Shown piece by piece: positions 49,017 through 50,951 of a DNA stretch of 64,000 nucleotides. Within the stretch, counting starts at the first letter, position 1. Each line of letters opens with the position of its first letter. The stretch covers positions 26,190-90,189 of the forward strand of contig CAVZUR010000004.1 in assembly GCA_963778555.1 (NCBI GenBank). The letters run 5' to 3'. Below the pieces are notes generated by a model. That model was not told where the DNA came from. It searched no databases and was given only the letters and a program-made list of their open reading frames with translations. Both the position numbers and the translations under genes were made by a program. This stretch comes from Candidatus Moraniibacteriota bacterium. GTDB lineage: Bacteria; Patescibacteriota; Minisyncoccia; Moranbacterales; UBA1568.

Positions 49017-50951
49017 TTACTTTTTCTCCTCGCCATCCTTGGGCTTTTCCTCCACTTCAGCGTCCTTCGGCGCTTCCGCTGAGCCTGCAGGAGCTTCGGC
49101 ACCCGTTTGGGCTCCAGCCGCCGCACCAGCCGCTGCCTGAGCTTCCTGGGCAGCCTTGTAGAGCTTCTCGCCGATCTTCTGCGCGGCTTGGGAGAGTTCC
49201 TCGGTCGCTTTCTTGATGGCTTCGAGATCCTCGCTGTCCTTCACTTTCTTCAGGGCCTCCAGCTTTTCCAGGACGGGCTTCTTCTCGTCATCGGTGAGCT
49301 TGTCGCCCGCGTCTTTCATGGCTTTCTCGGTGGAGTAGGAGAGCGTGTCGGCCATATTCTGCGCTTCGATGAGCTCTTTCTTCTTCTTGTCTTCTTCGGC
49401 GTGGAGTTCGGCGTCTTTCTTCATCCGTTCGATCTCGTCTTTGGAAAGCCGGTCGAAGATTCGATGCGGATGGACTGGGTCTTGCTGGTCGCCTTGTCTT
49501 TGGCGGTGACCGACAGGATACCCGACGCGTCGATGTCGAAGGTGACTTCGATCTGCGGGATGCCGCTAGGCGCTGGCGGGATGCCATCGAGGATGAAGCG
49601 GCCGAGGGACTTGTTGTCCGCCGCCATTTCCCGCTCGCCCTGGAGCACATGAATCTCAACTGACGGCTGATTGTCAGCGGCGGTGGAAAAGGTCTGGCTT
49701 TGCGATACCGGAACGGTCGTGTTGCGGTCGATCAAGCGGCGTCCGGACACCGCCGAGGGTCTCAATGCCGAAAGTGAGCGGCGTCACATCGAGGAGCAGT
49801 ACATCTTTCACGATCCCTCGAGCACGCCGCCCTGGATGGCCGCGCCAATGGCGACGACTTCATCCGGGTTAACGGTGATATTGGGTTTCTTGCCGAAGAA
49901 CTTCTCGACGGTCGCGAGGACCAGAGGCATGCGGGTCATCCCGCCGACCAAGACGACTTCGTTGATGTCAGCGACGGTGAGCTTGGCATCGGCCAAGGCT
50001 TTCTTCACCGGCTCAAGCGTTCCTTCGACCAGGTCATGGACGAGTTCTTCGAGCTTGGCACGGGTCATCTTCATGACGAGATGCTTCGGACCGTCGGCAC
50101 CGCTCGTGATGAACGGCTGGTTGATCTCGGTCTCACTGGCGGTGGAGAGCTCGATTTTGGCCTTTTCGGCGGCTTCCTTGATACGCTGGAGCGCGAGAGG
50201 GTCTTTGGACAAGTCGATGCCTTCTTGCTTCTTGAATTCCTCGATGATCCAATGGATGACTCTCTGATCGAAGTCGTCGCCGCCGAGATGCGTGTCACCG
50301 TTGGTGGATTTCACTTCGACGGTATCTTCGAGCACTTCGAGGATGGAGATGTCGAAGGTTCCGCCACCGAGGTCATAGACGGCGATCTTCTCATCTTTCT
50401 TCTTGTTGAAGCCGTAGGCGAGCGCCGCCGCGGTCGGCTCATTGATGATGCGCCGCACATTGAAGCCCGCGATTTCACCGGCTTCTTTGGTGGCTTTGCG
50501 CTGCGAATCGTCGAAATACGCCGGAACGGTGATGACCGCATCGGTGATCTTTTCGCCAAGTTTTTCTTCCGCGTCGGCTTTCAGTTTGGCGAGAATCATG
50601 GCACTGAGTTTCCTGCGGGCGTGTATTCCTTGCCGCCCATGACGATCTTCACGCCTTCGCCGGCCTGTACAATCTTGTACGGCAAGGTCTTCATGTCGCG
50701 CTTCACTTCGTCGTCGTTGAAGTGGCGTCCGATGAGGCGCTTCACGGAAAACAGCGTGTTCTCCGGATTGGTGACGGCCTGGCGCTTGGCCAGGAGGCCG
50801 ACGAGGCGCTCGCCGGTCTTGGATCATCGCGACCATGCTGAGGCGTGGTGCGATTGCCTTCCTTGTTTTCGATGATCGATGGGCTGCCGCCTTCCACGAT
50901 TGCCATCGCGGAGTTGGTGGTGCCGAGATCGATGCCGAGTATCTTTGCCAT
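49017..50951 (-). pseudogene. dnaK: Chaperone DnaK (Hsp70) interrupted by at least six frameshifts
   Basis: DnaK pieces occur in order across frames: [22 protein letters not shown] (50742..50951); [33 protein letters not shown] (unlisted frame); [66 protein letters not shown]...[10 protein letters not shown] (49808..50836); [23 protein letters not shown]; [18 protein letters not shown]...[33 protein letters not shown] (49421..49765); [20 protein letters not shown]...EEKK* (49017..49424). The pieces are highly conserved and have no internal stops. Confidence 0.85.

Follow-up and report, generated by a model that had tools for sequence, protein, structure and literature searches.

The question raised by this locus is whether the dnaK gene of a Candidatus Moraniibacteriota bacterium is really broken, or only appears so in the deposited sequence. 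The gene, which encodes the chaperone DnaK (Hsp70), occupies 50951..49017 on the minus strand of the window, by which we mean the whole stretch of 64,000 nucleotides that was analysed. A preliminary description of the window had found the Hsp70 signatures in their proper order but spread over three reading frames, and a three-frame translation of 51040..48990 (minus strand) gives the same picture, with all Hsp70 segments present and colinear. The six or more frame switches that had been counted are visible as six, and nucleotide alignment against three related loci shows that seven one-base indels underlie them.

The references used to place these indels were L001, which stems from the same population, and L002 and L003 from other Moranbacteria, and dnaK is intact in each of the three. 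Five of the changes are one-nucleotide insertions (at ~50841, ~50823, ~50621, ~50611 and ~49733) and two are one-nucleotide deletions (at ~49814 and ~49448). The indels sum to +3, so that the ATG start (50951) and the TAA stop codon (49017-49019) are in one frame, while the sequence as given does not have the single uninterrupted frame of a DnaK/Hsp70 gene (PF00012). The sites are as follows:

50823..50841, minus strand: pair of dnaK insertions at codons ~37 and 43, CACGCC[T]CAGC and ATG[A]TCC
50611..50621, minus strand: pair of dnaK insertions 10 nt apart, codons 110-114, TACA[C]GCCCG and CAGG[A]AACTC
49812..49816, minus strand: one-nucleotide dnaK deletion from the nucleotide alignment, GAGGG-ATCGTG in the window and GAGGGAAGTGTG in relatives
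49731..49735, minus strand: one-nucleotide dnaK insertion, CCGCTT[G]ATCGAC (Leu codon, wobble position)
49446..49450, minus strand: one-nucleotide dnaK deletion, ACCGG-CTTTCC in the window and ACCGGTCTTTCC in relatives (Gly codon, wobble position)

Near codon 40, where three switches within about 60 nt had been reported, we find only two, at codons 37 and 43 and 18 nt apart; the pair at codons 110-114 is a further one. The CC[T]C insertion falls at a Pro wobble position and TACA[C]GCC at a Ser/Thr codon. At ATG[A]TCC the sister allele of L001 has ATG AGT, which amounts to a switch between the serine codon families AGY and TCN (AGT/TCC), and the deletion at ~49814 is another such switch, with GGG-ATCGTG in place of the GGA AGT GTG of the relatives. 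A consensus called from a pile-up of mixed haplotypes is expected to contain union-type or lost bases at variable sites, and several of the sites do look as if the bases of two alleles had been put together (CC[T]C; ATG[A]TCC, for which L001 has ATG AGT; CTT[G]ATC) or as if both alleles had dropped out where a base varies. The placement of the indels in the alignment is ambiguous, and this argument from site context is suggestive, not statistical.

Contact with a GATC was also observed for three of the seven indels in dnaK (49730-49735, 49812-49816 and 50822-50826; post hoc binomial P ~0.007), one of the three GATCs being the product of the insertion itself. No such contact is seen at the sites in the adjacent DUF1189 gene described below, or at any of the four sites inspected outside the cluster. 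The overlap could hint at a methylation-linked base-calling error or could be due to chance, and we treat it as a weak lead. Scans for repeats, inverted repeats, tRNA genes and Rfam families around the dnaK locus gave nothing relevant.

When the frame is corrected, by removing the five extra bases and filling the two gaps, dnaK has 643 codons and zero in-frame stops. The corrected protein shows 85-91% amino-acid identity to 120 PF00012 proteins across 98-100% of its length. Where the source is named, the best matches are from Candidatus Moranbacteria/Moraniibacteriota, a lineage of the CPR/Patescibacteria, and with Moranbacteria DnaK the protein aligns colinearly, 90-91% of its amino acids being identical. 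The alignment of the 120 orthologues contains 420 near-invariant columns (at least 98% conserved), and the corrected DnaK deviates at one of these, namely R461S, at an Arg that is otherwise invariant among the orthologues. Intact orthologues deviate at a mean of 1.13 of the 420 columns (median 1). The dN/dS ratio is 0.136 relative to L001 and 0.03-0.08 relative to other species, the latter being in the same range as for pairs of intact genes. The protein thus belongs to the DnaK/Hsp70 family by its full-length colinear similarity and its retained invariant residues, and the reported lack of nonsense or missense drift is borne out. Frameshifts, the first mark of a decaying pseudogene, are present (seven in dnaK, three or more in DUF1189), and relaxed selection, the second, is not. 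By these measures the gene is not decaying.

The gene that follows dnaK is disrupted in the same manner:

47864..48905, minus strand: DUF1189 membrane-protein gene, last of the operon, with at least three frame changes

This is the adjacent membrane-protein gene that had been placed at 47883..48905 and called multiply frameshifted. The frame changes are confirmed, while the native stop is located at 47864 instead of 47883. One of the changes, at ~48497, is a one-nucleotide deletion at an Ile/Met wobble position (TTT AT- GAC), the one at ~48212 is either +1 or −2, and the third is found at ~48040-48060. The native acidic C-terminal tail, which is conserved in homologues, is read in a third frame.

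The end of this protein, ...APKDAEVEEKPAEEAPKEEEKK (47864-47935, minus strand), closely resembles the tail of DnaK, ...APKDAEVEEKPKDGEEKK (49017-49075, minus strand), and a DnaK-like tail is kept in a subset of the Moranbacteria DUF1189 homologues (e.g. P0272, P0274, P0283-P0285 and P0293 in our set). A duplication as the cause was considered, given that the two tails have APKDAEVEEKP in common, and was rejected, since the two DNA sequences agree at only ~75% and many DUF1189 homologues have this tail as a native part. Judged from the sequences, the likeness is a protein motif shared by adjacent genes and not a duplication artefact.

The two disrupted genes belong to a larger transcription unit, the remaining elements of which are:

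51065..51478, minus strand: hsp20, intact, protein identical to that of the L001 gene
51525..52358, minus strand: grpE with an N-terminal NUDIX domain, intact, protein identical to that of L001
52396..53142, minus strand: hrcA, intact, one synonymous substitution relative to L001
53149..53189, minus strand: operon control region with CIRCE and a promoter-like site
47838..47857, minus strand: GC-rich terminator-like hairpin directly 3' of the DUF1189 stop

Heat-shock operons of the order hrcA-grpE-dnaK under HrcA-CIRCE control are found in Gram-positive and many other bacteria. In the window, a perfect CIRCE operator, TTAGCACTC-N9-GAGTGCTAA, is located upstream of hrcA at 53163-53189 (0.01 expected by chance), and it overlaps a near-consensus promoter-like site, TTGACA-17-TATACT. 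The HrcA domain (Pfam PF01628) was found on the identical L001 gene, and the upstream CIRCE inverted repeat together with hrcA assigns the operon to the HrcA-CIRCE regulon. The hairpin at 47838..47857 is likely the end of the hrcA-grpE-hsp20-dnaK-DUF1189 transcription unit. The two broken genes thus close an HrcA-regulated operon that is otherwise well preserved, in which hrcA, grpE and hsp20 are intact, as previously claimed, with proteins identical to those encoded on the independent contig L001. In relatives the order is corA-yidD-hrcA-grpE-(hsp20)-dnaK, with DUF1189 directly downstream or a few genes further, and both dnaK and DUF1189 are intact in every relative examined.

Some other features of the surroundings can be mentioned here. 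A second CIRCE-like repeat, with two mismatches, is present at 16589-16615 (plus strand) and presumably controls another HrcA target. Pfam assigns both a NUDIX and a GrpE domain to the identical gene of L001; L003 has the same fusion (309 aa), as does, probably, a 301-aa ORF of L085, a metagenome contig, whereas the GrpE of L002 is plain, with 167 aa. Such a fusion of the GrpE co-chaperone to a nucleotide-diphosphate hydrolase is unusual. Directly downstream of the operon terminator there is a stretch of low GC content (46900-47864, ~0.47 compared to 0.54), with a 185-aa ORF that has no Pfam match and no counterpart at this place in relatives; this stretch, at the border of the variable tract, is possibly an insertion specific to the strain.

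L001, the reference from the same population, is a Logan short-read contig (ERR11593397_812713, 3223 bp) that was found by an exact-protein look-up with hsp20, and it aligns to 53734..50510 of the window. Over the ~2.35 kb of hrcA-grpE-hsp20 the two sequences differ by one substitution and no indels. From codon 6 of dnaK on, there are ~24 substitutions in ~430 nt together with four one-nucleotide gaps, that is, the divergence steps up from ~0.04% to ~5.5%, and the dS of dnaK is 0.155. The suspicion of heterogeneity in the preliminary description is consistent with this result, the dnaK locus being sharply more polymorphic than its flanks. The dnaK of L001 has an open frame for 146 codons, up to the end of the contig, which covers only the 5' quarter of the gene. 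Four of the window indels are within this span, and none of them is present in L001; all four are extra bases in the window. L001 carries another allele, however, and its intactness is not proof for the window's own allele.

By these comparisons the window dnaK is a second allele, diverged under purifying selection and joined to an identical flank at the start of dnaK. The boundary at this point reflects either a within-population recombination tract or a consensus that switches between strains. Two features expected of an artefact are thus found here, namely an intact dnaK in an assembly from the same population (for the 5' quarter) and a raised local polymorphism at the indel cluster. A second small strain-variable spot is the intergenic patch at 53478-53514, between hrcA and yidD, which has eight differences to L001, including a 2-nt indel, in otherwise identical surroundings.

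A same-species reference for the rest of the region was sought by several routes. With DnaK residues 360-643, the best match in the protein search was 87%, which was also the best match for DnaK in the search of genome contigs, where the window's own genome did not come up, while the corrected DUF1189 gave 63% in the protein search. The search of metagenome contigs with Hsp20 yielded L085, which at 93% protein and only ~78% DNA identity represents another species. Exact-protein look-ups with grpE and hrcA returned L001 alone, and those with the 185-aa ORF, a GNAT gene, an ArsR gene and yidD returned no match, probably because the called starts differ. One alternative dnaK allele was recovered in total, over 438 nt, and the protein, genome-contig and metagenome-contig searches gave no allele-level sequence covering DUF1189 or the three dnaK indels further downstream.

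To see whether the disruptions are confined to this region, the window was surveyed against the proteins of 84 related loci and Pfam. The following further cases were found:

54940-54960, plus strand: corA, 4 kb from dnaK, one-base insertion at ~54950 relative to three relatives; the frame is lost just before the last transmembrane helix, which is replaced, and the stop moves from 55040 to 55060
22290-22345, plus strand: WecG/TagA-type glycosyltransferase at ~22.3 kb, split over two ORFs, Pfam positions 1-49 in one frame and 59-166 in another
35756-35800, minus strand: 251-aa conserved protein at ~35.78 kb, matching relatives in two frames
38440-38444, minus strand: MMR_HSR1 GTPase at ~38.44 kb, GGCCGCCC-GTCGTA, matching relatives in two frames
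56795-56811, minus strand: 156-aa protein at ~56.8 kb, matching relatives in two frames
45500-45660, minus strand: membrane-protein gene at 45.26-45.84 kb, probable split, judged by eye only

The dnaK-DUF1189 cluster has ten indels in 3.1 kb, or ~3.3 per kb. The other 61 kb contain at least five detectable frame disruptions (six with the probable case), corresponding to at least 0.1 per kb. The cluster is thus ~30-fold denser than the rest of the window, and with ~0.3 events expected and ten seen it is far beyond chance. The earlier statement that the problem is regional holds in the sense that there is a hot spot at dnaK-DUF1189, but not in the sense of a confinement to it, since corA, the WecG-type gene, the GTPase and two or three others are frameshifted as well. 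The same kind of error therefore recurs elsewhere in the contig (corA, WecG, the GTPase and two proteins), and the whole consensus appears to be error-prone, with dnaK-DUF1189 as a hot spot within it.

Taken as a biological claim, the broken dnaK is most likely not a real feature. The scattered indels of the contig, the hot spot on a polymorphic tract, the intact sister allele and the lack of decay point to indel errors in the consensus, arising from the collapse of two diverged alleles or strains or from thin coverage, and we consider this explanation to be probable. It was one of the two offered in the preliminary description, which had proposed a cluster of consensus indels or else a very recent or heterogeneous disruption, and the conservation of the gene, its dN/dS of 0.14 and the intact 5' 146 codons in L001 lend support to that proposal. 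The dnaK-DUF1189 stretch at 47.86-50.95 kb would then be a functional locus that is mis-rendered by the assembly consensus.

The events leading to such a consensus can be envisaged as follows. The window is part of a large contig from the metagenome-assembled genome (MAG) of a member of Candidatus Moranbacteria (CPR), and the consensus of this contig carries scattered one-base indels. The population holds at least two alleles over the 3-kb stretch, with ~5% nucleotide difference (dS ~0.15) and an identical hrcA-grpE-hsp20 flank, probably as a recombination tract that begins at the start of dnaK. The assembly would have merged the reads of both alleles into one path or followed a minor allele with thin coverage, and the consensus or polishing step would then have left ~3 indels per kb. 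Most of the indels are at wobble positions or serine AGY/TCN switches, which would be the sites where the alleles differ and the alignment of reads is ambiguous. Both the sequencing and assembly mechanism and the co-occurrence of the two alleles in the source sample are inferred. Long-read consensus indels are known to be a common cause of frameshifted gene calls in MAGs (PMC9262707), and strain-oblivious long-read assemblers for metagenomes merge strains that are 97.6-98.7% identical into a single consensus (PMC8302730). An argument against an artefact is that homopolymers account for few of the indels, unlike in the classic nanopore error pattern. Furthermore, with hrcA-grpE-hsp20 next door being error-free, the error process must be strongly local.

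Another option considered was a genuine and very recent pseudogenisation, in which the approximately ten frameshifts in dnaK and DUF1189 are real and the sister strain represented by L001 is still intact. Selection might, for example, have ceased to act on the two terminal genes of the operon, or a second dnaK might exist elsewhere. The indels do stand in the deposited sequence, the two genes are adjacent at the distal end of one transcription unit, and R461S affects an otherwise invariant Arg; also, the window allele differs from that of L001, which is thus no direct voucher for it. However, in bacterial pseudogenes substitutions are several-fold more common than indels, and ten indels therefore predict dozens of unconstrained substitutions, which are absent here. 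From this ratio, at least ten hits would be predicted in the 420 invariant columns, compared to the one that is seen. The dN/dS of 0.14, the ancestral frame without a stop codon, the perfectly kept hrcA, CIRCE, grpE and hsp20, and the single-base disruptions of the same kind in unrelated genes of the window also argue against real decay, which makes this alternative unlikely. The more specific scenario, that a CPR lineage has just inactivated dnaK and DUF1189 by a burst of some ten indels while hrcA, CIRCE, NUDIX-grpE and hsp20 are still under selection, is slightly less likely still. If the indels were real, either some mutational process prone to indels would act locally or an episymbiont would have lost a near-universal chaperone.

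The consensus could also have been corrupted by reads from the dnaK of other Moranbacteria (85-91% amino-acid identity), through cross-species read recruitment or contamination during polishing. There are many near relatives with a highly similar DnaK, and many Moranbacteria MAGs have only a partial dnaK at contig ends; as L001 also ends inside dnaK, the gene is suggested to be a trouble spot for assembly. The DUF1189 gene is equally hit, though, and its closest relative in the database has 63% protein identity, which is too divergent for such recruitment. In addition, the closest other species, L085, has only ~78% DNA identity over the region. Recruitment across species would thus explain dnaK only, whereas a mixture of alleles within the species would explain both genes, and we regard the former as very unlikely. 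Programmed recoding or phase variation, in which the frameshifts are bypassed by ribosomal frameshifting or transcriptional slippage or serve as an on/off switch, would accommodate the indel sum of +3 in dnaK with start and stop in one frame, but an indel sum divisible by three would arise by chance in ~1/3 of cases, seven recoding events in one gene would be unprecedented, relatives have plain ORFs, and inspection of the contexts (GCC[T]CAG, ATGA[T]CC, ACA[C]GCC, GG[A]AAC, GGG-ATC, CTT[G]ATC and CGG-CTT in dnaK) revealed no slippery heptamer, long homopolymer or simple-sequence repeat at any of the ten sites in dnaK and DUF1189, so that this idea is effectively refuted.

The main value of the result, with the breakage of dnaK read as a consensus error, is one of quality control. 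Taken at face value, the annotation would turn dnaK into a pseudogene and lead to false claims of chaperone loss for a CPR bacterium, and it would also lower completeness estimates based on marker genes. More generally, frameshift hot spots in MAGs can flag strain-variable or recombined tracts. The underlying biology is modest, and consists of a sharp recombination-like boundary at the start of dnaK, two co-circulating alleles and an intact HrcA-CIRCE operon.

Finally, the locus can be compared with known systems. It shares with the known HrcA-CIRCE operons the order hrcA-grpE-(hsp20)-dnaK and a perfect CIRCE overlapping the promoter, and it differs from them in that dnaJ is not adjacent, grpE has an N-terminal NUDIX domain, and a DUF1189 membrane protein is encoded last in the operon. 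The true multi-frameshift pseudogenes generally known from host-restricted or reduced bacteria likewise have several frameshifts in a once-essential gene with intact neighbours, but here there is no nonsense or radical missense change, dN/dS is ~0.14, and the invariant columns and the regulatory apparatus are intact.

Compared to collapsed strain haplotypes (e.g. Flye consensus, 97.6-98.7%; PMC8302730), for which we have one alternative allele over 438 nt and infer the co-occurrence in the source sample, the likeness lies in sister flanks that are identical, a difference of ~5% inside the tract, and indels at wobble positions and Ser codon switches, at which a difference between alleles is to be expected. 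With the consensus frameshifts of long-read or hybrid MAGs, for which IDEEL tests, proovframe and polishing with short reads are used (PMC9262707), the locus has in common that one-base indels split conserved genes into adjacent ORFs and that several unrelated genes are hit on one large contig (a block of 0.2-1 Mb). Unlike the classic nanopore errors, which are in homopolymers, few of the indels here are so placed, and their ~30-fold higher local density coincides with a strain-variable tract.
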